64,000 bases of DNA from Proteromonas lacertae (lineage: Eukaryota): the NCBI GenBank assembly GCA_002245135.1, contig NGBS01000608.1, positions 1-64,000 on the forward strand. Direction: 5' to 3'. Made by a program: the position numbers and the translations under genes. This document shows, piece by piece, positions 1-55,283 of the stretch; position 1 is the first letter of the stretch; every line of letters starts with the position of its first letter. The notes beneath the pieces are model-generated. The model worked only from the letters and a program-made list of their open reading frames with translations, was not told the origin of the DNA and did no database searches.

Positions 1-3000
1 AACATTAAACTATCATACACTATATAATAACCATTTATTCCACCAACTGAATTAGAAGATTCTACAGAATAATCAAATCCAAAATATGCATTTGTTATTT
101 CTTCTTTTACAGGATAATCTTTCTCTAGTATTAATAATAAATGAATTATATTGGATTTTATATAGATTCCATTCTCATTTATAAAATCACATTGTTTACC
201 TTCATTTCCTTCCATTACACTAGAAAATGGATTTGGATCTAATAAACCAGTTGACTAGCTATTATCTCCACTTTTCCATTCATTATTTTAGCTGCATAGA
301 ATGATCGAGAGATATAGTTATTTGACATTAATTCAACAAAATTCGATCCTATCTCTTTCTTTACTCCTACCATTCCTTTTCTTACTGATGTTGGATCAAA
401 ACTATAAGATTCTCTACTCCCATTTCCCACAGTTTTACAGCTGTATAAGCAGCTTTCTGTTGATTGAACTAATTTGAAATAAGAACCAAATCGATTTGTC
501 ATTTTCATAAAAATTCATTCGCTTTTTCATATTTTCTTTCACTTCCTGTTCCAACTGCTATAAACCAAGAACCAAAGAATATATGATTCTCAAAATATTT
601 TTCATTTGTTTTAGTATCATATGCATCAACAAAATAATGAATATATACAAAATTTACTTCAGATGATTCCAAAGAATATAATGATTCAGATAAAGATAAA
701 GATAATTCATTATTCACTAAATCCATTATTACACAACCTTTATTATAATCACTCTTTATATTCTTTATTTCATCATTGTTAACTATCTCATTATAAATAT
801 AGAAATTATATTTTCTTTTCAATAAATCAAAATATCTTGAAATAATTCTTTAGAGGCATAACTAAATTCATCTTTATCATTATAGATTATACAAAATCCT
901 TTTGAATAACTCAATAAAGTAGATCGGAAGCATGAAGTAATTGATTCAAATTAGCTTGATTCACTATTCCATAACTATTACAATTTTCACCTTTCCGCTA
1001 TTCCCATATAAATAACAATTTCTTCGCTTTGTTAAAATAAGGAATCATTATATTATATTCTTTATCCCATAAACCACCAAATATTGCATTTACACCTGTT
1101 AATGCAGAGGTTTCTTTACTGATTGAATCTAATTTCTTTAAATCACTATCACTACTAATTATATCTACTTCAATCTGATTTTCCTATTAAACCATTTTCA
1201 TTTGTATTTATTTCTTCTACTGCATATAATATCGCACTTACCATCTCTCGGCCTCTTAATTCATCTCGACCATTCAACGATGCTATTATCTCAATCTTGT
1301 TACTTGGTTGTTTGTATTTTGAACCTATCTTTGTATCATTTAATACACATTTATATAATCCTGTATTTATAAACTTCTTCCAAGTTTAGGTCTTCCATTA
1401 TCATCGATTGCTTTCACTGTTATTTTTCCATTTCATCATTATAATATCGACCTACATACGTTCTTCTTTGGATTATGTTATTTGTTGCTAATTGCCATTT
1501 TCCTATTGGAGTTGTATATTCATTTTTGTAGAAATATTCTATTCCTATATCTCTGATCGATTTATCATCTTTTCCACTTATTAAATAATAATATCGATTG
1601 ATTGTTTCAGCCCAAAATAACACACAAGAATACATTGATTCATGATATCCATTCACTTCTAAACCACTTGGTAATGGATATCTCAATATATTCTAAATCC
1701 AATATTTCCAATTGATTCGATTGAGTTTAAATAATGTCTTAAACAAAAGAATGGTAATAATTTCTTTATTGAACCATTTGATACTGCCAAATGACTTACT
1801 TCTTCACATGTTGAGAATGAATAAAAAACATATTCATCAGTTGTTACACCTAAATCAACTAAAGCTTCAGATAATAATAAATGAATTCGAGCATTTCCAA
1901 AGAATAAAATTGTATTTCCACTTGGTAACATTGTCTTTATATTCTTCGCTATTGTACTTAATGACATTATATTCTCATCTAAACTTACGGAATATGTCAC
2001 ACTTCCTTTCAAATAATCGATATATCTTTCAGCATATGTACTGTATTTGATTGAAGTAGATTCAGATGTTCCAATTATTGCAAAATTCTTTAATCCTTGG
2101 TTTAATAATCTCATTATATAGATTTCTATAGAGGTTGGTTCTAATCCAATATGAATTATATTCTTTTCACAACTTTCACCTCCAAATAATCCAATATGAA
2201 ATAGTTTTATATTCTTTTCATTCAATTTGGGTAATATCATTTCTAAACACATTGAATTACTCGTACTAAATACCACATCATATTCATTCGTATTTAACGC
2301 TTCATTTAAACTGTTAAAACATATTGTTGAATCACTTTGATCATCAATTATTAAATAATCAACTTGTTTGTTATTGTTTATTCCTCCCAAATTATTTAAT
2401 TGGATTATTGCTTCTTTAAATGTTTCAGATATACCTACATAATCAGAATAATATATTCCTGAATTTGAAGTTACTAATATCACATGAATTATCTCTGTTG
2501 TGGATGTTGCACCACCATCATCATTATTGATATTTTCATTATTTATTAAGGTTGTTGTATCACACATTTTTCCATAATTTTCTGCAACATTCCAATCAAA
2601 TGCTTTAGGAATTGATCTTTGAACTGTTTTTACTACTTCTATTCCTTTTCCACTGTATTTATATACATACATATCTCGAACTAAATAATTACTCTTATCA
2701 AACCAAGTAGTTTGATCAGAATTTAGATATATACTGTATAAGTATTGTTTTAATATCAACAAATTTAAACTACCAGCATTACTCATTGCACTGATTATTG
2801 CATTTATTCCTATTGACATGGAAATTCCATCATCAGTTGTTTTGTAAAATCCAATATATTTCAATAATCGAGCTTCAGTTCTTTGAATTATATCACTACT
2901 TGTTACTGCACTATCTACACTTGAAACATAATAGAATTGATAAGGAATTCGATTATATTTCTTTTCAACTTCATCAGCATAGATTGACATTGAAAATATA

Positions 3001-6000
3001 TAATAATTATTTTCATCAGGATTGAGTTTCTCTAAAGTTTCTATTAATGAAAAGAATGGCTTTTTACTTAAGAAACTAACAATTATTCCTCCATTACTTA
3101 CACTTAAAGAATTGATTAATTGTTTTACTGTTTCCATCGAAAAGCGTTCAGTTTCTTGCATACTGAACTTTTGAACTACTCTCATTGAAGATGTGATTGA
3201 ATTAACAAATACTTCATAGAATTTATCCCAACTTGGATTTGGAGTATTAATTAAGATTATGTTTGCTTTATTTGTATTTTCCATATAAGAGATTGTTGTA
3301 TCAATTACTTGATTGATTATTGGACCGGTATAAAATACATTCTTATAACATTTTTCACCTATAAATCTTCCACTAACTATCAATAAACTATTATATTCTT
3401 CTGTTATTCGAACTGCTATATTTCGACAATAATCGGTTGTACATCCAACCATCAAGAAATTCACATTTTCATTCTTTATTCCAACTCCTAATTCATTTAT
3501 TTCATTCAATAATTTAGTTTTTAGTTTATTATCATTATCATTGTAGAATATATATATCAAATTCAGAAATCGACCTTTCTTTGTTGTTTCAACATTCAAA
3601 TTTATCTCATCAACTATCGCAGCTGAAGCTACTAACATTTGATAGAAATGAATTTCATTCTTTTGAGATAATATCACAAATAATGGGAAATAATTTATCA
3701 AATATTTTTCACTATTAATTGAAATGGTAAAACTACATTTATAAATATTTTTATTTTCGCTTATTAAATAAGTTGAATAAGGATCGGGAATTCTAGCTGT
3801 TGAAGAATCATATAACACTTTAAAATCGACTACAGAATTCTTGTTTTGAATTGTCATTATCAACGAAGGAATTGAGATTATATGATTTTCATTTATCATT
3901 AATGTTCCAATTGGAGAATTCACACTCACTCCACTTATTGAATTGATGAAATTTTCATATAAAAATGATTTCTTATTCTCAATTATGGATTTCCAAGCTA
4001 ATACACTTATTATTGAATAATACATATTATTAGTTGAATAATAGGATTCTACTAAATATGGATATAAATCTTTATAATATTCTACTATCAAATCATTCAT
4101 TTCATTTCCTTTTATTCCTTTCTTACTTGTCATTATCAACTGATTCACAAAATATCCAGAATATAATGGTAATACATTATAATCAACTCCAATATAATAT
4201 ATTCGGAAATTGGGTCTTACTATTTTACTTTCATAAAATACTTTAGCTAAAAATTGCATTTCACCTGTTTCCATCATTACTATGATTATTCCACTAGAAG
4301 TTAAATATGTAAATACTTGTTCGATTATGGCTTCATAACTTCTTCCATCTTTTAATATTCTGATTGATTTTAATACTTTGATGTTTAATGACGATAAATC
4401 ACTTATCAATATATCTTTAGATTTTCGACAGTATTCTACATCATTGTATAAAATCAAAACTCGAAATTTTGTCTCTAAATAATCACCTTCAATATAATAT
4501 TTTATTAATGTTCTGGATGTAAATGGAATTCCAACATATACTATATTCTCTTTACATTCTAATCCTTCATAATCATGAGGATAAAATAATATCATTTTAT
4601 ATTCAGATAATTTCTCTTTTATCTCATTTCGCATTTCGGAATTACTTAATCCAAATATATAAGATATCTTTTCTTCTTTAAATACATCCAAAGCTCCAAT
4701 TACTTTACTAACATCAGAATTTACATCTTTTACTATTGGTAAAATTATATATCCTCTTATTCCATTGTATTTCTCATTTATTACTTTACATATCAATATG
4801 TATGATAATAACATTGCAATATCTTGTTTAGCATAAGATCCACTTAATGATAATAACAAACCAATATTTATCACTGTTCGATAGTATTTCTCAGATCTTG
4901 AACTAAGCCAGTTACAACTGTATAGTGATTTTGGTAATATTGAATCAATATATACATTTGCTTCATTGGATTGTTCTAATAAAGTCATCATATGTGTTAA
5001 TATTCCATTACTATTATAAGCACTTATTGCTAGTGGATGACTTATCACATTATCTTGAGTAACTACTACTTTCCCAAATAACGTTTCAAATCCATCACTT
5101 GAATATAATTCATTTACTGTTGAATCAAAATTAGATAATACAGAACTGTCTTTTATTGATTCACATAACAAGAATAATGGTAATAAATACTTCAATTCAT
5201 ATCCATTCATTATATAACCATTTCCTAATACATTGTTGATATAATTGATGATTTTGTTACTCTTTAGATTTATTATATCTGATATTAAGAAATAATTTAT
5301 ACTAATTCTATTTTGAGTAAATGAATTATCTAAATTGAATGTGTAATAATAATAACTTAGCTTATAATTATTTAAATTATTTAAGAAATATCTCAATTTA
5401 TCATCACCTAAATTACAGATAATATAAGCATCTGAAAAATTATCTATTTTTCTACTTGAATAGTAATCCAAATTACCAATAAATTGGTTTATTTTATAAG
5501 CTATAGTATTAACATTTTCATTTAAATCTATTTGTAAATGACTTATTACTTGAATATCTAATTCTTTTATGGCTTTTAGAATTAGATTGTTTTGACTTTC
5601 TTTACTTGCATTATTATCATAAATAAATGCGATTTTACTTCCATATCCATATAATAAGAATTTCATCGCTGAATTTATAAATTGATCAGGTGAAGGAGAT
5701 ACAAAGAAGATGTTCTTTTTACAAATATTTCCTTCATTTATTCCAGTATAAAATAATATAGAATTTTGTAAACATAAACTGTTAGAATATAGTTGAAGTG
5801 AATCTATTCCACATCCACCTATGAAGATTCGAATATTATATTCATTTTGATCATTTTCCATTTTTTCAATTAAGGAGGAAGTCATTGGACATTCATAATA
5901 ATGATAAATCTATAAATAATAATAATATCAATTAAATATACAATTATTCTGGAGTTTAGATAATCTTCATTTCTTATATAGTTTGCTGACCATTTCAATA

Positions 6001-40344: not shown

Positions 40345-40641
40345 TTCAGTAATGTAGTTAGTTCAAAATTAATATTGATAAGATATATGAATGTATGCTA
40401 ATTGTTGATAAATATAAAAACTATGTAATGAATTACGATGAATGAGGGGGGAATAAAACGTTTAAAAAATAATTAAAAGATATCAAACCTTTATTTGAAT
40501 TTCTTTTGAAATAAGCCTCACCAATAAAAATTAAAAAATTCAAACAAATTTCTCTGATAATTTTTTAAATTTTGTTATATCGAACAACAGCCACACATAT
40601 ATGTACAGATTACACATATAATAAAGATAATGTTCATTTAA

Positions 40642-42023
40642 TCACAATCTACTCAAGCATTTCATTCGTTTATTCAAATTATAACACTCTTCTTTCATCT
40701 CATTCAGTATTTCATTCTTCCGCGATGTGTAATAGAATATGCAAAGGAAGAAAACACAAGATACAGTAACAAAAGCACTAACCACGAATGGAACTCTATG
40801 GTGAATAGTATACAATCCACCGAATATAAGTGGACTAATAATTTGACTTAAACATGAAAAGGTATTAATAGTTCCTAGAATTTTACCTTGATTCTTACTA
40901 GAGAAATATGACTAACCAAAACAGAGTAACTTGATACAGTCATACCAAATCCAAGCAAATACACTACACTGCCACTCATTACGATTGAAAATGGTGTTGA
41001 TATAATGAATATCCATCCAATAATTTGAATAATATATCCTATAAACATTGTATGTCCAATATAAACATATTTACATAATAATGGAAAAAGAAATAATTGA
41101 AAAATTGTCATTATACATGAATTAAAAGATGCAATACCTCTATATATAATTAAAAAAGGAATATATATATACGCTAATATTACTTGGTTATTAGTATAAT
41201 CATCTTTTAATCTTTTACCTAAATAAGAAGAATTACACATTAATGCAACATTATCACACAATGATAATATGCAAATAATATACTATAAATAATAACATTA
41301 GAAAATATACAATTGATATGTTGGATAAATCCTGATTTGAAGTATCTTCACTTTTGTTATTATTTTCTTCAATTTCTATTTTTCTCACTGCATCATTACT
41401 TTCGTGAGTCAATAATCTCATACTACTTCCTATATAATAATAGAATAGATTATGCTTTGATTATCAAAGTCAAATTTTGGACTGTCATCTAACAGTATCA
41501 AATCAACTACAAATATTAATGTATAAACTACACCACACATAGAAAATGGAATCCAATTGCCATAGTTATATAAAACACTACTAACAAGTGGACCAATTGA
41601 TAATGAAAGTGTTGAACAACCAATTATTCTACTTAAATATTTTGTTTTTTCTTCTTTCTTTACACAATCTGAAATATAAGCTTGACAAGTACCAAGTGTA
41701 GTTCCAAAAAAGCCAGCGATGAATCGAAACAATATCATGAAATAAATTGAAGGTGAAAACATTTGTAATACTGCGCCTAGCATTGATCCAAATAGTGTAA
41801 TTAAGATCAGTTTCTTACGACCAAATTTGTCACTTAAATAACCTGTTGGAATATAACTAATGAACTGAGCAGCAGGATAGCTTGAAAATAGTAAAGAGTA
41901 CAATAAGTTGCTGTTATTTCCAGCATAAAATGGTAGTAATGGCATTATAAAAGACATGCATGCCATATCTGACACTACAGTTAAGAATATAAGTACCAAA
42001 TTCTTTTTAAACTTGTTGTTCAT
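40642..42023 (-). CDS. MFS transporter (DHA1/TetA-like) copy 1, with a 1-bp frameshift and a GC-AG intron
   Basis: GYLSDKFGRKK motif A. One base is missing near 40903 relative to copy 2. Intron 41430-41455 starts with GC. Confidence 0.85.
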
Positions 42024-42164
42024 TTGTTAGACAAAAAATGTTTTGTATGTCAAGCTTTTCTTCAAATCTTTGTGTTTTATTTTTTAAATATCATTGTATA
42101 GATTCTATATAACATTAAATCACATGTTTTTATTTAATATATGTGTAAAGCTGATTATACAAAT

Positions 42165-42359
42165 AAAGAGTAATACCTTTTGATTTAATACACAAAGAAA
42201 GACTTATAAGTATATATATATCATAAAAATAAGAGAAATATTTACTTCATTTGTTTATTCAGGTTATAACACTCTTCTTTCATCTCATTCAATATCACAT
42301 TCTTCCTCGACGTAAAGTAGAATAATAACAAGAATAAAACACAAGCAACTGAAATAAAA
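42165..42359 (-). pseudogene. 3' remnant of an MFS copy; direct repeat of ~46443-46684
   Basis: 42253-42359 matches 46578-46684 with one mismatch seen. Confidence 0.9.
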
Positions 42360-42616
42360 TTAACTCAGATTAATACATACTTTAAGTTGAGGTTAAAATT
42401 ATGGTTATAGCACTAACAACTATTGAGAGTTATTCTTTAACAAAAAGATAAATAAACATATTTGAATATAGTCAATATAATAATAGATCATTATTGCTGT
42501 ATAGCAAAATCATTAGTTAATAAGGAAATTAATTAGCATATTGAGATAATTCTTCAAATGTAATACACACTGTTCTTGCTTTATCCTTTGCTAGAGCATT
42601 TAAAATAACTTTTTCG

Positions 42617-45600
42617 TCATGCCTCTAAATCATTAGGAATAAAATTTTTAAGCCATTCTGGATAGAATTTCATACTTCTATCATCTACTTCATTTATACT
42701 TACTGTTTCATTGGGACTGATGAAGAATAAACCAAATGGACTTTTCTTTGTAACACGTGTAGTATTGCTAATATCATTTATGTGATTATAGTGTTTGTAT
42801 ACATGTTGTAGTATTCTAACCATCTCGGGTGAAAAAGTATGGCTATTACTAATCGTAAGTTGAATACCAAAAGGACCAATCATTCCGTCAATATCGGGGA
42901 AATTTGTTCTGTAACTTAAGTCTAGTAAGTACATCTTCCCTTTTTCTTCTATTTTCTCTTTAATTTCATCATCATTTCTCACTGCAACCACTTCTATTTT
43001 CTTTTCACTTGTTGAGAATTCTTTTCTAATATTCTTTTTATCTTCTCTATTTATGCCAATCACATCTACATATGTATCTTTTAAACTCTTGTTTTCACTA
43101 CACATTCTATTAAAAACTAAATTCATAAAATTATTATCTACTTTCATTAAATAAAATACAATATTCTCATATAAGCATCCTTTTATACTTTCATTTCTTA
43201 ATGTTAACAATAAATCTATCATTTGTATACATTTTTCTTTTGTTGTAATTTTAAATATAGATTCTTTCACCATATTTTTTACAGTTTCAGATATAAATGT
43301 TAAGTTATCGTATATTCTAACATCATCTTCATAAGTTTTATAAATAAATATATTGTTGTTGTATTTACCTTCAATTATATCCTTTATTCTAATCTGTTTA
43401 ATTTCATAGTCTATTCCACTCTGATCAATTCCATTATTTCCTATTACACCACCATAATATTCATAGTTGTTCCTGTAATTTTTTCTGATTTTGTTATATG
43501 AAACAAACGAACGTTTATTATTTAGTTTTTGTTGAAGAAATCTATTTTCATCAAATTCTTCCTCTTTTATTAATGACGAATTTAAATGCATTTCTGTAAT
43601 TGCCATATTTGACACATGTACATCTAAATCATGTTTATTCATGAAGCAATTGGGATAATTTCGATATAATTTATATTTTGGATGTTTCAGAATTATCACT
43701 TTTTCCACTTCTTCTTTTGTAAATGGAGGTATATACATCACAAGTGGACATCTTTTACTTTGAAATGCCTTATACTCTTCTTTTGTTTGATCAGCTATTA
43801 ATATTATCATTTTCGCTTCTGGATATTCATCTTCACCAATTACAGCTCCAAGTGAAATAACAATATATGGTTCAGTATCTTTATAGTTATATATATTTTC
43901 TTTTCGTTTTTCTTTATCATTAATTGTTATTATTTTGAAATTTTGATTGTTTTGATGAATATGTTCTTTTAATACAGCTGCTAAGACTGTTTTACCAATT
44001 CTTTCATGACCAAAAATTAAGTAGTTCTTTTGATTTTCATTAGTAAAACTGTAATCATTATTAAAAATAACATCAAGTATCTTTTTATAACAATCTCGCA
44101 TTAAATAAATTCTTATATTATTCTCTATAAATGCTTCTATTTTCTCTGGTTCTTGTACTTTACATAATGGAGGCGGAATTTTTGTATTTAATCTTTCTAT
44201 TAATTCATTCCTACTTCCATTTGCATCTAATCCATTCATTGTTAATATATTCTTTAATTCATCTTCTGTTAAGTTATTGTAATCATAATCCATTTCTTCA
44301 TTGTTATTATATCCTTCTTCTTTTGCTTCTTCTTCTGTTGCTGCTTTTGCTTCTTCTTCTGCTGCTGCTGCTTCTTCTGCTTCTGCTTCTGCTTCTGCTG
44401 CTTTTAATTTATTAATTAATTGCGCCTTGTTTCCATTTTTTGTTAATCCTTTCTTTCCTAATAATTCTTTTAACTGAACAACTGTTAATTCTTCATAATT
44501 AACATTATTTTCACCTCCTACACTTACTATATCAATTTTATCCCCATCTTCTTTTAATATACAATAAACAAATTTGCTATTTTGGTTCTCATTATAGTTC
44601 TATTATATATTATAAGTTATATATAGATAATACTTTTACTGATTCTTCCATTTTATTTTTAGTATCATTATTATCTATAAATGTCTCATTGTTATATAAT
44701 ATTTTTATAAATACACCATTCATAATTAAGTCAAAATAACTATCTTTATCCAATATAAAATAAAGAAAATTCTTTGCACCTACAGGACAGTATAGTGAAT
44801 TCTTTTTCGTTGACTTAAATTGAAAATATTCATCTTTATTCTCAATTTTGATTACTTCTGTTGCTAGTTGATACGCTGTAATTTGTTTCAATGCTACTTT
44901 CTTCATATCCACATCAGCTATGCTACTGTAATTCTTAACTAGATTAAGATATTCATCATTATTTCTAGGAGGATAGAAATTATAAATTATGTAATCTTTA
45001 ACATATTTTGATATAAATTTCAAATGATCTTTGTTTGGTTGATATACATCATGACGTAAAATTTCATTATACATCTTCTTTAAATCATATTTTAATATGA
45101 TATTCGACAAATCTTTTCTTTTTAAATAATTATTATTCTTATAATTATTTAAAAATTTGTCATAACCATCTGAACCTACAACACCTTCTATGAGTTTTGT
45201 ATAATATTTCCAATAATCTTCATTATAATTCTTATTATATAAATAACTGAAGTACACTAACCTGGGAATATTACCATAACGTTTACAAACAAGTTTAAAA
45301 CTATCACTTTTTACATCAACATTATCAAAACCAATACAATTCTTAAACCAATTCTGAATTTCCTTAAATGTTAATGATTGAAAATATAATTCGACTTTAT
45401 ATTCATTCTTTAGATATATATCATTATTCTCTTCGTCTGGAGAACTAATAGAAATAACTGTATTATCATTTTTGAAATGCATATTACAAGTATCCACTAT
45501 TATTATTGCTTTGCTAATAGCAGAAGTATCAATATCACTTAGAGTAAGACAATAACTCATCATTGTCGTATATACCAATCTATAAACTTTTGTTTTTGAA

Positions 45601-46181
45601 TAATCACCATGTTTCTTACCTTTTACAACAAATACACCACCTGTATATCTTTCATTCCAAAATGGATTCTTCTTTAGTTTGTATAATAAAAAATAAATAA
45701 ACGAGGTCTTACCAATACCAGGCTGACCAGTTATTACTGCATTCCAATGAAACTCTTTTTCAATAATTTTCTTTATATCTTCATACATGCTATTATAACA
45801 TTTTCTGATGTAAACTTTTTTCTTAGGAAATTGAAATACATTTACATTAACACTTGAAAATTCCAAATACTCACTATCTGCACTATTATCTTCTTCATCT
45901 TCATCATCATCTTCATCTTCTTCTTCATAATCATCTTTTTCATTTGGTATTTTGGTTAGATTCATAGAATTAATGATATCCACAAAACTATCACTTATTA
46001 TATCTACTATTCTTAGATAGTTATTATCTCCTTGGTTATTACCACCTCCATTTCCATTCATATTCATAACTGGAGTTGTGCCTGAAGCTGTATTTACAAA
46101 TCCACCTGTATGTTCATCTTTACATTCATCTTCAGCTACGTTTTTACCTTCATCTTTATTTATAATAGAATCTTGCTCCAT
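42617..46181 (-). CDS. Crinkler/RHS-type protein: P-loop NTPase - degenerate REase - SAP - SAP - NTPase - PD-(D/E)XK-like REase
   Basis: Phase-0 intron 44600-44633 joins the two ORFs. VYIRKCY..VITGQPGIGKT; SAP motifs LTVVQLKELLGKKGL..NGNKAQLI and LTEDELK..L..NGL..NGSRNELIERL; YLMRDCY..GHERIGKT; NFPDIDG...IQLTISNSH. Confidence 0.75.
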
Positions 46182-46563
46182 ATAATTGTTTAAAGGCTAT
46201 TAAGTGAGATATTAAGGATTATAATTTCAATCAAATCAAATCAAACCTAATTTTATCAGTCAATAGAGAGAGAGAGAGAGATGTTGATAACAAATGAATA
46301 ATTATCTTTTTTCATTAACTTTCTTCGGGTCAATTATTATCTTAAAATAAACTATATTACCACATTGTTATAAAAATATTAACTGATGATACTACTATAT
46401 CATCTTCCACTTCGAATTAAAAATGGTGTAAGGAGTAGAATTAAAGAGTAACACATTCATGTTGTTGATAAAGCATATTCAATTTAATAGCACAAAAACA
46501 CATATTTAAGTATATATATCATAAAAATAAAGAGAAATATTTTTCATTTAATCACAAACTATT

Positions 46564-48032
46564 TTAACTACTCACTCGTTTATTCAGGTTATAACACTCT
46601 TCTTTCATCTCATTCAATATCACATTCTTCTTCGACGTAAAGTAGAATAATAACAAGAATAAAACACAAGCAACTGAAATAAAAGTACTTACAAAGAAAG
46701 GAACTTTATGATGTATAGTATACAATCCACCAAAAATGATTGGACTAATAATTTGACTTAAACATGAAAAGGTATTAATAGTTCCTAGAATCTTACCTTG
46801 ATTCTTACTAGATACAATATGACTAACCAAAACAGAGTAACTTGATACAGTCATGCCAAATCCAAGTTCATGAATTACAGCACCACATAAAACAATTGAG
46901 AATGGAGTAAATACTATTAACATCCATCCAATAATTTGAATCATATATCCTATAAACATTGTATGTCCAATATAAACATATTTACATAATAATGGAAAAA
47001 GAAAAATTTGAAAAATTGTCAATACGCATGAATTGAATGAAGCAACTCCTCTATATATATATATATATATATTTATATTTATTATTATTATTATTATTAT
47101 TATTAATACGCAACAATGATTTGATTATTAGTATAATCATCTTTGATTCTTTTACCTAAGTATGAAGAATTACACATTAATGCAACATTATCACATAATG
47201 ATAATAAACATATAATATACTATAAATAATAAAATATATATTAATAAATATACAATGGATATATTAGTTAAATATTGATTCATATTCTCTTCAGATTTAT
47301 AACTTTCTTGTCTTGATATTTTGGGTAAATATATTTCTATATTTCCACTACTTGCTCTTGGAATCCTTCCAGCTATTGTATCTTCACTGGTTATAACAAC
47401 ATCATCATCTTCATGACTTAATAATCTCATACTACTTCCTATAAAATAGAAGACTAATGAATACTTTGATTATCCATATCGAATTTTGGACTGTCATCTA
47501 ACAGAATTAGATCTATTATAAATATTAATGTATAAACTATTACACACATTAAAAAAGGAATCCAAGTTCCAAAATCATATAAAATACTACTCACAAATGG
47601 ACCTACAGAGAATGCAAGTGTTGAACATCCAATTATTCGACTTAAATATTTTGATTTTTCTTCTCTTTTCACACAGTCGGTTATGTAGGCTTGACAAGAA
47701 ACGATTGTTGTTCCAAAGAAACCTGCGATAAATCGAAATAATATTAAGTAACCAAGTGATGGAGACAACATTTGCGCTACAGCACCTAGTATAGATCCAA
47801 ATAGTGTAATTAAGATCATTCTTTTACGACCAAATTTATCACTTAAGCAACCCATGGGAATGAAACCAATAAACTGTGCTGCTGGATAACATGCAAATAA
47901 AAATGAATAAACTGTTGCATTACCATTACCAGCATAAAATGGTAATAATGGCATAATGAATGATACTGCTGCCATATCTGACACTACAGTTAAGAATATA
48001 AGTACCAAATTCTTTTTAAATTTGTCATTCAT
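46564..48032 (-). CDS. MFS transporter copy 2
   Basis: GCLSDKFGRKR; 3 introns; paralog of copies 1 and 3. Confidence 0.9.
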
Positions 48033-48246
48033 TCTGTTTTTAATAAAGAATCAAATATTTACAAGCTGTACTTCAAGCTTTTTGTTTTAATAAACCTTCA
48101 TATTTCATCTTTTAATTCATATTGAAGTACTGAGACATATTATTGTATATTCATTTTGCCTAATACAAAACTAAATCAATAGAATACATATAATTCAACA
48201 AATATATGATAATAGCATAACTATCCATTTAGTTATATATCCTATA

Positions 48247-49610
48247 TTAACAAGTAACTCCTTTATTCACATTATAACATTCTTCCTTCATTTTATTCAA
48301 TACTTCATTCTTTCTGGATGTATAATAGAAAATAAAAATGAAAAAAACGCAACTTATATTAATCAAGGTAGCAGTAAAGAAAGGAACTTTATGATCAATA
48401 GTATATAATCCACCAAAAATGATTGGACTAATAATTTGGCTTAAAGAAGAGAAAGTATTAATTAATCCCAAATATTTCCCCATATTCTCATTTGAAACAA
48501 GATGACTAACCATAACAGAATAACTGGAAGCTGTCATACCATAACCTAATCCTTTAATTACAGCTCCACTTACCATTAATGAGAATGGAGTTGATAATAT
48601 TAGCACACATCCAATGATTTGAATAATATATCCAATCAACATAAAATGTGGAATGAAAAGAAATTTACATAATAATGGAAATAAAAAGAGTTGAAAAATT
48701 GTTAATACAAAAGAATTGAATGAAGTTAATCCACTATATTTTAAAAATAATAAATAGAATTATACGCAACAATTACTTGATTGTTTGTATAATCATCTTT
48801 GATTCTTTTACCTAAGTATGAAGAATTACACATTAATGCAACATTATCACATAATGATAATAAACATATAATATACTATAAATAATAAAATATATATTAA
48901 TAAATATACAATGGATATATTAGTTAAATATTGATTAGTTTTATCTTCACTTGTTTGATTTGGTATTTTCATTATTTCTTCTTGCTCTTCCTGACTTAAT
49001 AATCTCATACTACTTCCTATTAAATAGAAGAATAAAGAATACTCTGATTGTCTTCATCATATTTTGGACTATCATCCAAATATATTAAATCAATCACAAA
49101 TATTATCCCATAAACTATTGCACACATTAAGAAAGGAATCCATTTGCCATAATTGTATAAAACACTGCTTATAAATGGCCCAATAGAAAAGGAAAGTGTC
49201 GCAAATCCAACTGTACGGCTTAAATATTTTGATTTTTCTTCTTTCTTAACACTATCTGATATATAAGCCATACATGAAACTATTGCTGTTCCAAAACAAC
49301 CAGCTACAAATCTAGCAAGTATTAAATAGATTAGTGATGGAGAGAACATTTGTAATATTGAGCCTATTATAGATCCAAATAATGGTATTAAGATCATTAT
49401 TTTTCTTCCAAATTTATCACTTAAACAACCAACTGGTATGGAACTAATAAACTGTGCTGCTGAATAACTAGCAAACAGAAAAGAATACATTGTGGCACTG
49501 TTATTACCAGCATAAAAAGGCAATAACGGCATTATAAATGACATTGCTGACATATTTGCTACAACTGTTAGAAAAATAAGAATTAGATTCTTTTTAAACT
49601 TGTTATTCAT
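48247..49610 (-). CDS. MFS transporter copy 3
   Basis: GCLSDKFGRKI; same exon structure as the other copies. Confidence 0.9.
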
Positions 49611-49811
49611 TGAATTTTATATTCTGTCAAGCCAAATTCTTTTATGATTTGTGTTTTTCTTATTGTATAGTTCGTATATTATTGCTAGAAGATATTCATT
49701 TATCATGAATTGTAATGTTAATAGCAATGCCCCCATATATTAAAACACAGATAAATCAAATGAACTCTCTAATGAAAAGATGGACATTTAAACGATACTA
49801 TGCTAATAATA

Positions 49812-51269
49812 TTAGACCTTAGCTTCAATTGAAGAAGTTGAGTTGGTTACTTTACTTATTTCAGGAGTAACAGGCGAAATAGGTGACACTAGATTGTCAT
49901 AAGTATTTTCAGGTGATTTAATTGCAGAAATAGAAGAATCTTCATCAGATCTATCACTAGAATCATCAATTTCAATATCACTAAATACAATTTGTCTTGG
50001 CATACTGGACATCCTAGGATAATCTTTCTTATTATTATTATCATCATCATCTTCATTACGTTTCAGATTTTTCGATTCATCAATATCATGAGGAAGAAGA
50101 AATTTATAAGATAGATCAGTACCAAAGGCACCAAGTGGAGCTGTTATTAAAATAGCAAAAACAGTACAACTAATAATCGTTTGGCCTGATGAAATACCTT
50201 TAGCAAGTGGAATTCCTCCAATTGCAGCTTGAACAGTAGCTTTAGGTAAATAAGCGATTATACAAAACAATATTTCCTTCCATGAGAATTTATTACCAAT
50301 TACACTTAAAAATACACCAATGGTTCTAAAGCAAAGAGCTAAAAAGATTGTTGCAATTAATTTACCAGCTATTTTACCTAATCCACTCATGTCAACAGCA
50401 GCACCTACCAATGTGAATAAAATCATTTCAGCAACCATCCACATAGATGTATATCTTTTACTTAATCGATCTGCACATTTAGGGAATAGATTGTGGATAG
50501 TTATACCCATACAAATAACGGCTAGTAATCCAGCAATAGGTAACCATTTTTTAATTGCGTTTTCTAAGGCTACAAATAGAAAAGAAAAGCTTACAAGAAT
50601 TACACACTTTTTTGCATCACCTACCTTCGTTCTTTTGAAGAATAAGGTCAATACATACCCTGTTGTTACTCCTAAGATAACTGCTAGTATTATTGAAACA
50701 GGGATCTGCCATAGTATATTAAAGCTGAAACCATCACCTACAGCTACATCACATAATGCTCCAAATAATACTATTGCATATACATCATCAACACTTGATC
50801 CAGCTATTATTATTTGAGGTATTCCGTGTTTTGTTCCATAATGATTCTCTATTAAATACAGCATTCGAGGTACTACTACTGCTGGAGATACTGCTGCCAT
50901 TACACAACCCATGATAGCACCATGTAAACGAGGAATTCCTACGATATCAGGAGCTACAGCTAAATATCCTAATATTTCACAGGATGCTGGGATAAAACAC
51001 ATCATAATAGCTGATCTTCCTATTTTTTTCAAATCACCTACATCTAAGCTTAATCCACCACGACTTAGAATAATGATTAAAGCCATTTCTCTTAAATCGG
51101 TAGACATATCTAATAGTTCTTTGTTGATTAAATTGAGAGCGTTTGGTCCTAATGCTAAGCCAATACCAATCATTCCCACAAGAGGCGGTAGTTTTACCAA
51201 CGTCAAAACATAGCCAACAATTAGTGAACAAATGAACAGGATGCCTAAGCTTAATAACAACTCAATCAT
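49812..51269 (-). CDS. Cation/H+ antiporter (NHA/SLC9B-like, bacterial type), copy 1
   Basis: AAVSPAVVVPRM, AGSSVDDV, LPKATVQAAIG; intronless. Confidence 0.92.
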   Translation of the reverse strand: MIELLLSLGILFICSLIVGYVLTLVKLPPLVGMIGIGLALGPNALNLINKELLDMSTDLREMALIIILSRGGLSLDVGDLKKIGRSAIMMCFIPASCEILGYLAVAPDIVGIPRLHGAIMGCVMAAVSPAVVVPRMLYLIENHYGTKHGIPQIIIAGSSVDDVYAIVLFGALCDVAVGDGFSFNILWQIPVSIILAVILGVTTGYVLTLFFKRTKVGDAKKCVILVSFSFLFVALENAIKKWLPIAGLLAVICMGITIHNLFPKCADRLSKRYTSMWMVAEMILFTLVGAAVDMSGLGKIAGKLIATIFLALCFRTIGVFLSVIGNKFSWKEILFCIIAYLPKATVQAAIGGIPLAKGISSGQTIISCTVFAILITAPLGAFGTDLSYKFLLPHDIDESKNLKRNEDDDDNNNKKDYPRMSSMPRQIVFSDIEIDDSSDRSDEDSSISAIKSPENTYDNLVSPISPVTPEISKVTNSTSSIEAKV

Positions 51270-51839
51270 TTTATAAATTGTGATTGAAATTTGATTCGCT
51301 GTTTGATATTATCAGTTGTTCTATAAGAAATTATTTAAACAAGGTTTCTTTGCGTCATAAGTATTAGTAATTATATTTATGCAATTTTACAGAAAAGAAA
51401 AAATTAAAAAGGCTTCTAATTAAAATATTGAAGAATTTAACTTAGTTTCATTCTATAACTGACAGAATGAAACATATGGTTAGAATCACTAAGATTATTT
51501 CATCAAAATACCTTAAAGTATGTTATTTGTGTTGTTATGAAAAAAATAATGATCAAGCTTTTTAATCAAGCCTGATTTTGTTATTGTCAATAATATCTCA
51601 TCATATACATCATATGGAATGATGAAATGTATATCTCGCTATATATACTACAAAATAAATTAATATACCCCCTATAACAATAGAATAGGCAAATAAAATA
51701 ATTATAAATATTAAAACAAATCTATCTAAATGATGCAATACTAATATTATTAAATTGAAGTATCTGAAAAAGGAGTTATATTCAATAGCACAATTCAACT
51801 AAAGATAATAAGGTAAAAGTAAACTTTACATTGATAGAG

Positions 51840-53165
51840 TTACTGTACATGTTTTGGATCTTCATCATTATACGTAATTTCAATGTCACTAAACACAATC
51901 TGCCTAGGTAAGCTTGAATTTCTTGAATTATCACTTTTCTTATCATTGTCATCATCATTCTCATCATTAGATTCATCAATATCATGCGGTAGTAAATATT
52001 TATAAGATAAATCAGTTCCAAAAGCACCTAATGGAGCTGTTATAAAAATTGATAATACAGCACAACTCAATATCTCTTGACCTGAAGACACACCTCTATC
52101 CAATGGAATTCCACCAATTGCAGCTTGAACAGTTGCTTTTGGCAAGAAACCAATAATACAAAATATTACCTCCTTCCAGGATAACTTATTACCAATTACA
52201 CATATTACTGTTCCTATTGATCTGAATATAAGAGCTATAAATATAGTTGCAATTAATTTACCAGCTATTTTACCTAATCCACTAACATCAACAGCTGCAC
52301 CTACCAATGTGAATAAAATTACTTCAGCAACCATCCACATAGTACTATACTTCTTACTTAATCGATCTGCACAATCTGGAGATAAATAATGTATAGCTAA
52401 TCCCATACATATTACAGCTAGTAATCCAGCAATAGGAACCCAATCTTTAACAGCATTTTCAAGTGCTGCAAATAAAAAAGAAATGCTAATTAATATAAAA
52501 CATTTTCTAGAGTCACCTATATCTGTTTTTTTGAAGAATAATGTTAATATATATCCCACAAATACACCTAATATTAGTGCTAATATTATTGAAACAGGGA
52601 TTTGCCAGAATATGTTATAACTAAATCTATCACCAACAGCTACATCGCATAATGCTCCAAATACTACAATCGTAAATACATCATCAACACTTGATCCAGC
52701 TATTATTATTTGAGGTATTCCGTGTTTTGTTCCATAATGATTCTCTATTAAATGCAGCATTCGAGGTACTACTACTGCTGGCGTAACAGCACCCATTACA
52801 CAACCCATAATAGCACCATGTAAACGAGGAATTCCTACGATATCAGGAGCTACAGCTAAATATCCTAATATTTCACATGTAGCAGGAACAAAACACATCA
52901 TAATAGCTGATCTTCCTATTTTCTTCAAATCGCTTACATCAAGACTTAATCCGCCATTTGTTAATATTATAATCAAAGCTATGTTCCTTAAATCAGTAGA
53001 TATATCAAGTATTTCTGTGTTTATCAAATTGAGTGCATTGGGTCCTAATGCTAAGCCAATACCAATCATTCCCACAAGAGGTGGTAATTTTATCAACATT
53101 AACACATAACCTAATGCCATTGAGCAAATAAACAGTAAAGCTAGACTTAATAACACTTCTATCAT
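51840..53165 (-). CDS. Cation/H+ antiporter, copy 2
   Basis: Tandem paralog with the same motifs. Confidence 0.92.
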   Translation of the reverse strand: MIEVLLSLALLFICSMALGYVLMLIKLPPLVGMIGIGLALGPNALNLINTEILDISTDLRNIALIIILTNGGLSLDVSDLKKIGRSAIMMCFVPATCEILGYLAVAPDIVGIPRLHGAIMGCVMGAVTPAVVVPRMLHLIENHYGTKHGIPQIIIAGSSVDDVFTIVVFGALCDVAVGDRFSYNIFWQIPVSIILALILGVFVGYILTLFFKKTDIGDSRKCFILISISFLFAALENAVKDWVPIAGLLAVICMGLAIHYLSPDCADRLSKKYSTMWMVAEVILFTLVGAAVDVSGLGKIAGKLIATIFIALIFRSIGTVICVIGNKLSWKEVIFCIIGFLPKATVQAAIGGIPLDRGVSSGQEILSCAVLSIFITAPLGAFGTDLSYKYLLPHDIDESNDENDDDNDKKSDNSRNSSLPRQIVFSDIEITYNDEDPKHVQ

Positions 53166-53332
53166 GATGTTTTTATTTAGTGAATATAACTGGATGAAAT
53201 GTTCAGCTAGTTAAATAAAATTATTGCCACAGTTGAGTATATGTATAAGTAAATAGAATGATGTAAAAAAGTTACAAACATAACAGATGAACAATCGAAA
53301 ATATCAATTTATTTTTAAAATAACAACAAAAA

Positions 53333-55283
53333 TTAATTTATTACAGTAGCACCAACTCCAATAATCTCGTCAGGATTAACTAATTGAACAGGACTATAAT
53401 TCCTACTGATTATATCTCTAATAAATCTAATCCTCCCATATTCTCCACATAGTATGATATTGGTAATTTCATTCTTTAAAACAGTGCATTTTCCATTTCC
53501 CACCGTACATTCATTCAATTTTTCTAAAAATTGTCTTTTATAATTACTATTGATTGTTTCATATAGTGAATAACTCATTTCACTTTCTACATCATATATT
53601 TCAAATAACGAATTAATAAAATTAAATTGCTTACTGGCTAAACTATAAAAAGATTCTCTACATTCAATTATTTCACTTTCTAAAGATTCAAGCTTATGTT
53701 TGATGGAATTATTATTTTCTATTTTACTTTGTTCTAAACCATTCTGAATGAATTGATTTACATAGTAATTATAAATATTATTATCAATTAATTTTCCACT
53801 TAAATTAGTTATTTCTCCACTATCATATAATATATCACATTTCAAATCAATCACATTGATAATTGTTATATTTACTCTATTCTTTTCAATTATTATAACA
53901 ACATAAATTCCATTTTCTATTTTTTGATCTAAGTTGTAATAATATCCAGCAATTGCTGCAAGTGGTTCTTTGATAATTCCACGAAGAAATAATTTACTTT
54001 CTATTTCATAAAAATATAAAAATATAAAAATATAAAATATTATATATATATTTATACTATATAAATTCAATGATTCTGCCATTCCTCCTATTTGCTCTTT
54101 ATTAAAATAACTTGGTACAGTAATATTAATATCTCTCAAATGAAACTCACTAAATTTCATTGAATATTTCACCATTTCACATAATAGTATGTTATATAAT
54201 GCAATAACATCATATTTCACCTCATGGTCTTTATCTTCATTTATTATAATTTCAGGATATTCTCCATTCTTAACAATTTTGAAATTCCATTTATTTAATT
54301 CATTCTCTATATCTACATATTTTTTACCAATTAAATGCTCTAAATCATAAATTAATGGATTATCTAATTTATGCTCATTATAAGCACAATTTCCAATCAA
54401 CCAATTATTTTTAGTTTTACTAAATGATAGATAAGAACGTAAGTATATATCATTATTTATTGGTAAACTAACTACTCTACCTTGCTTCCATATTCCACTT
54501 AATATATAATCTAAAGATATATGACAACCGATTCTACCTTGATCTGGACTGATGACGAGATTCTCTTTTAATAGATTGCTACAGTCGGAAGTGATGGAAC
54601 GTGATTGGAGGAATCTTATACCAGTGTGACGAATTAATGGAGTTGTTGGTAATCTAAAACAAAATAAGAATTATAAAAAGTGTTTAGAAATTATATATAT
54701 ACTCAGGAGCATTTGCATCTACAGTAATATGAAATTCATTCTCTCTATCTGAGAATACATATTTAATTGTATAATTATTGACAGATGTATAAAACAAAGG
54801 AGGTCTTTCAGCTGGTAATTCAAACATTTTTAGAATAATACAACTTGAGAGTTGTTTGGATATATATGGCATCATCTATTAAATTAAATTTAAAAATATT
54901 TAAAATATACTAACTGTAAATATCTCTCTTTATCATGCTCTGTCTTGTCTGAAGTGTAAAATCCAAGAATATTAGTTTCTTTCTGTAAAGTCTTCAAATA
55001 TTTTTTACATTCTGAGTCTTTGTCTCTACGATCGTTCGGAATATTGTAACCTATGTTGATTATCTTCTTTTCTTGATCAATATTGCCAGTAATCACTCCA
55101 AGAATTGAGCAGTGTATATCAAGGCTTAAAGCTTCCAAAATGTCTTTATGAATCTTCTCCATCACAATCTAATTTTAGATAATTTGCCTATACTGTTGTA
55201 ATTTTTATTTGATATGTTTTGATTTCTTCTTCTGAGAGCACATCATCATCTGGACTTGGTATAATAATATCATCAGAAGACAT
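53333..55283 (-). CDS. MPN/JAB-like N-terminal region fused to a divergent Hsp70 nucleotide-binding-domain-like region
   Basis: Four GT-AG introns give one reading frame. ILGVITG...NILGFYTSD; then IGCHISLDY, ITVPSYF, IIKEPLAA, LSGKLID, IILCGEYGRI, NPDEIIGVGA. Confidence 0.65.

Follow-up and report, generated by a model that had tools for sequence, protein, structure and literature searches.

A predicted tandem-module NTPase and nuclease-like protein with an internal SAP-domain pair in Proteromonas lacertae

We analysed a stretch of 64,000 nucleotides (hereafter the window) from Proteromonas lacertae (assembly GCA_002245135.1, contig NGBS01000608.1, positions 1 to 64,000 of the forward strand). 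On its minus strand lie two open reading frames (ORFs), ORF A (46181..44610, 523 aa) and ORF B (44293..42617, 558 aa), which are predicted to form one gene, spliced at a 34-nt intron and encoding an intracellular protein of about 1176 residues. Excision of this intron (44633..44600) brings 516 codons (46181-44634) into frame with 660 codons (44599-42620), giving 1176 aa. The predicted protein contains two tandem modules, each with a P-loop nucleoside triphosphatase (NTPase)-type half and a C-terminal domain, and a pair of SAP domains between them. Residues of SAP domains and module 2 are numbered from the start of exon 2.

44634..46181, minus strand: exon 1, 516 codons; acidic low-complexity N-terminus and module 1 (from the ORF listing and translation)
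44600..44633, minus strand: predicted intron, 34 nt, GT...AG, GTATTATC...ATAATAG
42617..44599, minus strand: exon 2, 660 codons and TGA stop; SAP domain 1, E/A linker, SAP domain 2 and module 2

The one-gene model is drawn from the exon-2 frame, the local intron type and a homologue. Upstream of its first ATG, the exon-2 frame holds 102 open, ATG-less codons, which contain the whole of SAP domain 1 and begin at the acceptor; the TAG that ends the intron is the in-frame stop where this frame opens, i.e. exactly at the proposed acceptor. At local composition the probability of an open run is about 2e-5 for 102 codons, 5e-25 for 516 and 8e-32 for 660, which excludes chance. The intron is of the same type as others in the window, including a 32-nt intron in a kinase gene, a 26-nt intron in an MFS-transporter gene and GTAT...ATAG candidates of 26-54 nt. 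In the relative P0001 (1041 aa), both modules are carried in one uninterrupted ORF that is colinear with this gene: module 1 residues 180-513 align with P0001 329-662 (E 2e-38), and exon-2 residues 163-454 with P0001 777-1032 (E 7e-24). An alternative donor at 44639, 6 nt upstream, would give a 40-nt intron that is also in frame and removes two more residues. A single frameshift joining the two frames was ruled out, since the frame-1 stop (44612-44610) precedes the frame-2 opening (44599).

In another relative, P0003, the ORF ends (...KKSIEV) one codon beyond the residues aligned to the end of exon 1 (...EESVK). Judged from the protein ends, this would fit an intron at the equivalent place, with P0001 reading through without one.

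The features of the encoded protein are as follows.

45852..46181, minus strand: N-terminal ~110 residues, acidic and low-complexity, without a signal-peptide-like hydrophobic start or a Crinkler header
45705..45728, minus strand: module 1 Walker A GQPGIGKT (residues 152-159), in agreement with the family consensus G.PGIGK[ST]
45492..45494, minus strand: module 1 Walker B aspartate D230, in IIIVDT, retained (alignment A1 column 379)
44634..45023, minus strand: module 1 C-terminal region (residues ~387-516), shortened and degenerate, 3/12 family positions kept
44700..44738, minus strand: the sequence YFDLIMNGVFIKI within this region
44396..44500, minus strand: SAP domain 1 (residues 34-68), Pfam SAP 38.6 bits, E 7.9e-10, upstream of the first ATG of the frame
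44312..44404, minus strand: E/A-rich low-complexity linker, GCA/GAA repeats; direct-repeat family D1 at 44314-44421
44186..44284, minus strand: SAP domain 2 (residues 106-138), Pfam SAP 38.2 bits, E 1e-9
43505..44110, minus strand: module 2 NTPase-fold domain (residues ~164-365), well folded, 11/22 family positions lost
43988..44011, minus strand: module 2 Walker A-like GHERIGKT (residues 197-204); GxxxxGKT fits, family-invariant P and G replaced by E and R
43847..43852, minus strand: IVISLG (residues 250-251), where module 2 has lost the Walker B aspartate; relative P0039 keeps ISDE here
42620..43306, minus strand: module 2 C-terminal nuclease-like domain (residues ~432-660)
43166-43168, minus strand: E478, nuclease-like key residue of module 2
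42887-42889, minus strand: D571, likewise
42854-42862, minus strand: Q580-x-T582, likewise
42839-42841, minus strand: H587, likewise

The two modules appear to have lost different parts. Module 1 combines a Walker A of the form GxxxxGK[ST] with a Walker B of the form hhhhD on a P-loop fold, as expected of a P-loop NTPase (ASCE, AAA+/STAND-like), and also retains the SSPD and G...R motifs. Its C-terminal region differs from the family at E (K432), Q (K493), T (L495) and H (T500), with D484 kept; when this part was compared by hhalign with the canonical C-terminal profile, only the first 54 columns aligned, at a probability of 29%. Module 2 has E and R in the P-loop where the family has P and G, DQ for SP and N...S for the G...R pair, and it lacks the Walker B aspartate; in its C-terminal domain E478, D571, Q580, T582 and H587 are kept and one histidine is replaced by F482. 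The relative P0039, 47% identical to module 2, retains the Walker B aspartate, suggesting that the decay of the module 2 NTPase half is partly lineage-specific. We scored 34 alignment positions (initial Met excluded) that are conserved in at least five of six canonical single-module relatives, with the following result.

Module 1: 20/22 NTPase-half positions kept; 3/12 C-terminal positions kept
Module 2: 11/22 NTPase-half positions kept; 7/12 C-terminal positions kept

At the level of aligned motifs, module 1 is thus shown to have kept the NTPase motifs and lost the C-terminal ones, and module 2 the opposite. These results bear on a sequence-only reading of the same DNA, which had described two ORFs fused by a 34-nt intron to ~1180 aa. 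The in-frame GT...AG join is indeed present in the sequence and yields 1176 aa, splicing itself being predicted, and the motifs it quoted (GQPGIGKT, YFDLIMNGVFIKI, GHERIGKT and G.LYE / NFPDIDG / IQLTISNSH) all occur where it placed them. Its account of module 1, a canonical Walker A beside a decayed nuclease-like region, agrees with the 20/22 and 3/12 positions kept. Its 'reciprocal degeneration' holds for the motif counts of both modules, and the active/inactive pairing that it attached to them stays conjectural.

Both SAP copies, scanned separately, exceed the Pfam SAP (PF02037) gathering cut-off of 23.9 bits, and SAP domain 1 also matches the THO1 SAP structures 1h1j/4uzw (E about 1e-3); a PDB sequence search with exon 2 returned SAP/THO1 matches only. 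The sequence-only reading had set twin SAP motifs on an E/A-rich linker between the modules, and both domains were recovered there, the E/A stretch lying between the two SAPs themselves. By BLASTP, the SAP pair was found in 0/39 relatives. 'Crinkler' and 'SAP domain' did not co-occur in the literature library searched, a search that lay apart from the architectures and supplements of Zhang et al. 2016. On the opposite strand, a 94-aa poly-Leu-rich ORF (44131-44415, plus strand) mirrors the GCA/GAA repeat encoding the E/A linker, and is almost certainly not a gene.

To place the modules among their relatives, we searched 1.84 billion protein representatives with ORF A as the query, obtaining 30 relatives at E<=0.001, 13 of them at <=1e-10; the ten whose source was looked up came from Logan or ENA assemblies. 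Homologue searches with module 2 at near and longer lengths gave none, profile A1 gave P0039 only, and two scans of metagenome contigs found no relatives. The relatives P0012, P0009 and P0013 have a single module. In P0012 and P0009, an intact P-loop NTPase is followed by a helical middle part and then by a C-terminal domain that shows the motifs of module 2 (G..YE...H, FPD.D, FQ.T....H). The alignment of module 2 to P0012 is end to end, covering residues 166 to 591 (E 1e-14), and P0012 itself was found with module 1 as the query (E 1.6e-11). Against the six canonical relatives, profile comparison by hhalign scored the module-1 type at 97.5% and module 2 at 98.5%; compared directly, modules 1 and 2 showed no significant similarity (BLASTP E 0.36; hhalign 3%).

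A maximum-likelihood tree of 23 rows, with P0001 entered as two separate halves, grouped module 2 with P0001 half B and P0039 (support 100/99), and module 1 with P0001 half A and P0013 (97/91), while the intact single modules P0012 and P0009 formed a clade of their own (99/96). Given these three supported groups, the modules are, as far as the tree tells, old paralogues whose fusion is older than the split from P0001, and not the product of a recent tandem duplication.

The C-terminal domain of module 2 was examined by AlphaFold2 (AF2) modelling. The C-terminal 236 residues alone gave a mean predicted local distance difference test score (pLDDT) of 59, and in the model of the whole module the C-terminal half fell below pLDDT 50. 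The predicted order of elements, a helix (with E478), a strand, a strand preceded by D571, a strand with Q580-x-T582, a helix and a strand, is that of the restriction-endonuclease (REase) core, and is consistent with that fold without proving it. A Foldseek search with the C-terminal model stayed empty at E<=0.001, with arenavirus cap-snatching endonucleases heading the non-significant rows; a second structural look agreed, and the weak structural matches that cover the core were nearly all nucleases. Searches of this domain against nuclease folds and nuclease families gave no significant match. A PADLOC search returned nothing below E 0.007, and those matches covered P-loop stretches only. 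For the PD-(D/E)xK catalytic pattern, E478 and D571 stand at the expected places and strand 3 reads Q580-L-T582; this QxT motif, without the canonical acid and lysine, is shared by this gene and the six canonical relatives, so that catalysis by module 2 stays putative.

The order NTPase, helices, alpha/beta domain is visible in the alignments and in the AF2 secondary structure, the match to the REase fold being weak. In the language-model atlas, the look-alike clusters of module 2 bear the names Crinkler (CRN) family (0.96) and RHS protein (0.91), and those of the C-terminal part alone are Oomycota and Euglenozoa clusters (0.93-0.95). Pfam models for Crinkler/RHS-type (CR) proteins, RHSP included, matched neither module of this gene; relative P0022 reached 18.2 bits against RHSP (PF07999), below the gathering score of 25, over profile positions 3-136 of 312. 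CR proteins are defined by Zhang et al. 2016, as relayed by PMC5289972 and PMC11064341, as a header domain followed by C-terminal modules. In this gene, a Pfam scan of residues 1-108 found no family at E<=1, Crinkler PF20147 included, and hence no ubiquitin-like Crinkler or other CR header among the types held by Pfam, alpha-helical header types absent from Pfam lying outside the scan. The gene is probably derived from a CR module and would work like one, full membership of the CR proteins being putative.

The proposals of the sequence-only reading on nuclease and family were borne out in part. Its altered Walker A and nuclease motif in module 2 are both present, the 'typical' label failing at strand 3, which is QxT and not (D/E)xK. 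The structure prediction it had suggested as a check for a PD-(D/E)XK fold returned a core-like order (mean pLDDT 59), with no Foldseek match at E<=0.001 and no (D/E)xK. Its Crinkler/RHS assignment is supported by the order of parts and the look-alike names, and not by a header or a Pfam CR/RHS match.

The gene lies within a tandem array of three MFS-transporter paralogues (40592-42079, 46440-48100 and 48242-49611; 76-79% mutual DNA identity), and is flanked by direct repeats.

42183..42362, no strand assigned: downstream direct repeat, a fragment that duplicates the 3' end of MFS copy B (the middle gene), 81% identity over 208 nt
46482..46687, no strand assigned: upstream direct repeat, where MFS copy B has its genuine 3' end

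The 116-nt core of the repeat fragment is 97% identical to the original at 46572-46687, compared with 76-79% between full MFS copies. Judging from the flanking repeats, the gene seems to have reached this place by an insertion or a rearrangement in the fairly recent past; the gene-bearing segment showed neither a transposase nor terminal inverted repeats. Within the array itself, copy B has a 26-nt GT...AG intron (47439-47464), the matching site of copy A (41430-41455, minus strand) has a GC donor, and the last exon of copy A is in a reading frame different from that of copy B; copy A may have a GC-AG intron or be a decaying copy.

The window is AT-rich and eukaryotic in character (GC content 23-31% in 2-kb windows), and frames of 1408, 660 and 516 codons are open in the standard code. 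ORFs of at least 180 aa end in TAA (20), TGA (9) or TAG (4). A ciliate code with TAA/TAG read as Q was ruled out by the long standard-code frames, and TAA read as Q meets a TGA soon after ORF A. A protein-kinase domain becomes whole only if a 32-nt GTAT...ATAG intron is removed, and in an MFS-transporter gene a 26-nt intron lies between two exons. When long open frames were scanned for in-frame GTA...TAG links, 36 candidates came up, not all of them real, most of 24-54 nt and starting GTAT. Rfam and tRNA scans of the 64-kb window found no family and no tRNA gene. Neighbouring genes encode protein kinases, Na+/H+ exchangers, an Hsp70-like protein and a 1408-aa periplasmic-binding/ANF-receptor protein. 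The 1408-codon frame (1686-5909, minus strand) carries Peripla_BP_5/6 and ANF-receptor domains, with a candidate 32-nt intron ahead of it at 5910-5941. The Na+/H+ exchanger genes are in tandem (49815-51308 and 51843-53210, minus strand), and adjoining them is the Hsp70-like frame (53336-54670), which covers only positions 166-371 of the Pfam HSP70 profile.

We favour, at a rough probability of 0.5, a reading in which this single gene encodes a SAP-tethered, NTP-regulated DNA-processing enzyme, a fused pseudo-heterodimer that is likely nuclear. Module 1 would bind and hydrolyse NTP, and module 2 would provide the sole competent nuclease-like site. The SAP pair would keep the protein on DNA or chromatin, where NTP turnover by module 1 may gate whether module 2 makes a one-sited cut or nick (or binds tightly). 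Complex predictions of module 1 with module 2 scored 0.01, 0.39 and 0.01 in separate runs, which speaks neither for nor against pairing. In a bolder version, which we put forward as speculation and consider unlikely, a toxin-type CR module would have been domesticated into an asymmetric, one-chain mimic of an NTPase-nuclease heterodimer, with module 1 holding the one live NTPase site and module 2 the one live nuclease-like site. It would be a SAP-clamped, NTP-gated nickase that works in the nucleus of its own cell, in programmed DNA processing or to defend the genome.

The main competing explanation, doubtful but well worth entertaining, is a domesticated chromatin protein in which the C-terminal domain cuts in neither module, the SAPs and one NTPase forming a switch or scaffold as in trypanosome RHS proteins. 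It would account for a QxT strand that lacks the acidic residue and lysine of (D/E)xK, for the lost H482, and for the lack of any significant nuclease-fold or nuclease-family match; the two SAP domains, with no header (Pfam) or secretion signal, fit it as well, and PMC6393297 describes Trypanosoma brucei RHS proteins working in RNA polymerase II (Pol II) transcription and on chromatin. Against this, E, D, Q, T and H stand unchanged in the six canonical relatives and persist in module 2 but not in module 1, which suggests selection on a site and not merely on a fold, and nuclease matches dominate the weak structural hits over the core. A reading as two separate genes, with the 34-nt segment retained, ORF A stopping at TAA 44610 and ORF B starting at ATG 44293 with SAP domain 2 only, is highly improbable. 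Each ORF does have its own ATG and stop, the join is read from sequence alone, and single-module relatives exist (P0012, P0009, P0013); however, SAP domain 1 (38.6 bits) would then fall in untranslated DNA, inside a 102-codon open frame with no ATG, and both the fit of the intron to the local consensus and the colinear single ORF of P0001 argue for a join.

SAP domains suggest action on the cell's own chromatin, and together with the acidic low-complexity N-terminus, the absence of a Pfam Crinkler header and the lack of a hydrophobic signal they make it extremely improbable that the product is a secreted Crinkler-type effector toxin delivered to the cells of another organism. That idea draws on the Crinkler and RHS names of the look-alike clusters, and on the NTPase plus REase arrangement that PMC5289972 and PMC11064341 present as typical of cell-death-inducing CRNs. 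The gene might also be the cargo of a recently inserted or duplicated mobile segment, a selfish element, which is compatible with the other readings and which we judge very unlikely. The ~4.1-kb gene-bearing segment does sit in the MFS array between ~200-nt direct repeats derived from the 3' end of copy B, and CR modules have been proposed, in the account given by PMC5289972, to stem from transposon-linked NTPase-REase pairs; yet the gene is single-copy within the 64-kb window, the segment holds no transposase, terminal inverted repeats or other element hallmarks, and ectopic recombination in the array would leave the same repeats.

CR-type NTPase-nuclease modules are widespread in eukaryotes and their mechanism is largely unknown, regulation of the nuclease by the NTPase having only been proposed. 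This gene would offer a natural fusion in which NTPase and nuclease-like motifs are split between two copies in one polypeptide, making the proposed division of labour directly testable by point mutants. The twin SAP insert and missing header suggest a toxin-type module re-used in the nucleus of its producer, beside the trypanosome RHS precedent. The significance is modest, as the family is already known and the nuclease fold is unproven here; what appears new, by comparison of sequences, is the architecture of tandem modules with a SAP pair.

Among known systems, the closest are the CR modules themselves. As described in PMC5289972 and PMC11064341, NTPase + HTH (helix-turn-helix) + REase is the commonest C-terminus of Phytophthora CRNs, the proposal being that the REase is toxic and that the NTPase regulates it; PMC5289972 further relays the proposal that CR modules descend from transposon-linked NTPase-REase pairs. 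This gene would share with them, so far as these sources describe, the order NTPase, helical middle and C-terminal alpha/beta domain with E...D...Q-x-x motifs, and differs in having no ubiquitin-like or other header domain (Pfam), in its two tandem modules with complementary motif loss and two SAPs between, and in a strand-3 QxT in place of (D/E)xK. The Crinkler AACRNL of PMC12957317 is an ADP-ribosyltransferase and not relevant to this gene. T. brucei RHS proteins, to which PMC6393297 (Florini et al. 2018) assigns roles in Pol II transcription and on chromatin, resemble this gene through a P-loop domain weakly similar via relative P0022, and their nuclear or chromatin-linked use of a CR-type protein sets an example for a domesticated role. 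They differ from it in domain order and SAP content, the Pfam gathering score is not reached and there is no multigene array within the window.

With regard to AAA+/STAND NTPases (Cdc6/Orc1, plant NLR NB-ARC, Apaf-1; nSTAND3 PF20720), the nSTAND3 matches span just the Walker A region and fall mostly below cut-off: module 1 scored 21.2 bits against a gathering score of 27.2, over profile positions 5-44 of 155 only, and P0001 scored 35.9 bits, on positions 10-46 only. A PDB sequence search with module 1 gave no match, and since superfamily 1 (SF1) helicases and TnsC score about equally, the general P-loop class alone is fixed. Close systems also include BspD6I, a heterodimeric nickase, and, among type II restriction endonucleases, the Cfr10I/Bse634I/NgoMIV group. 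With SAP-domain proteins (THO1, SAF-A and others; PF02037) this gene shares two SAPs above cut-off and a match to the THO1 SAP structure, and it differs from them in that its SAPs form an internal linker between two enzyme-like modules.

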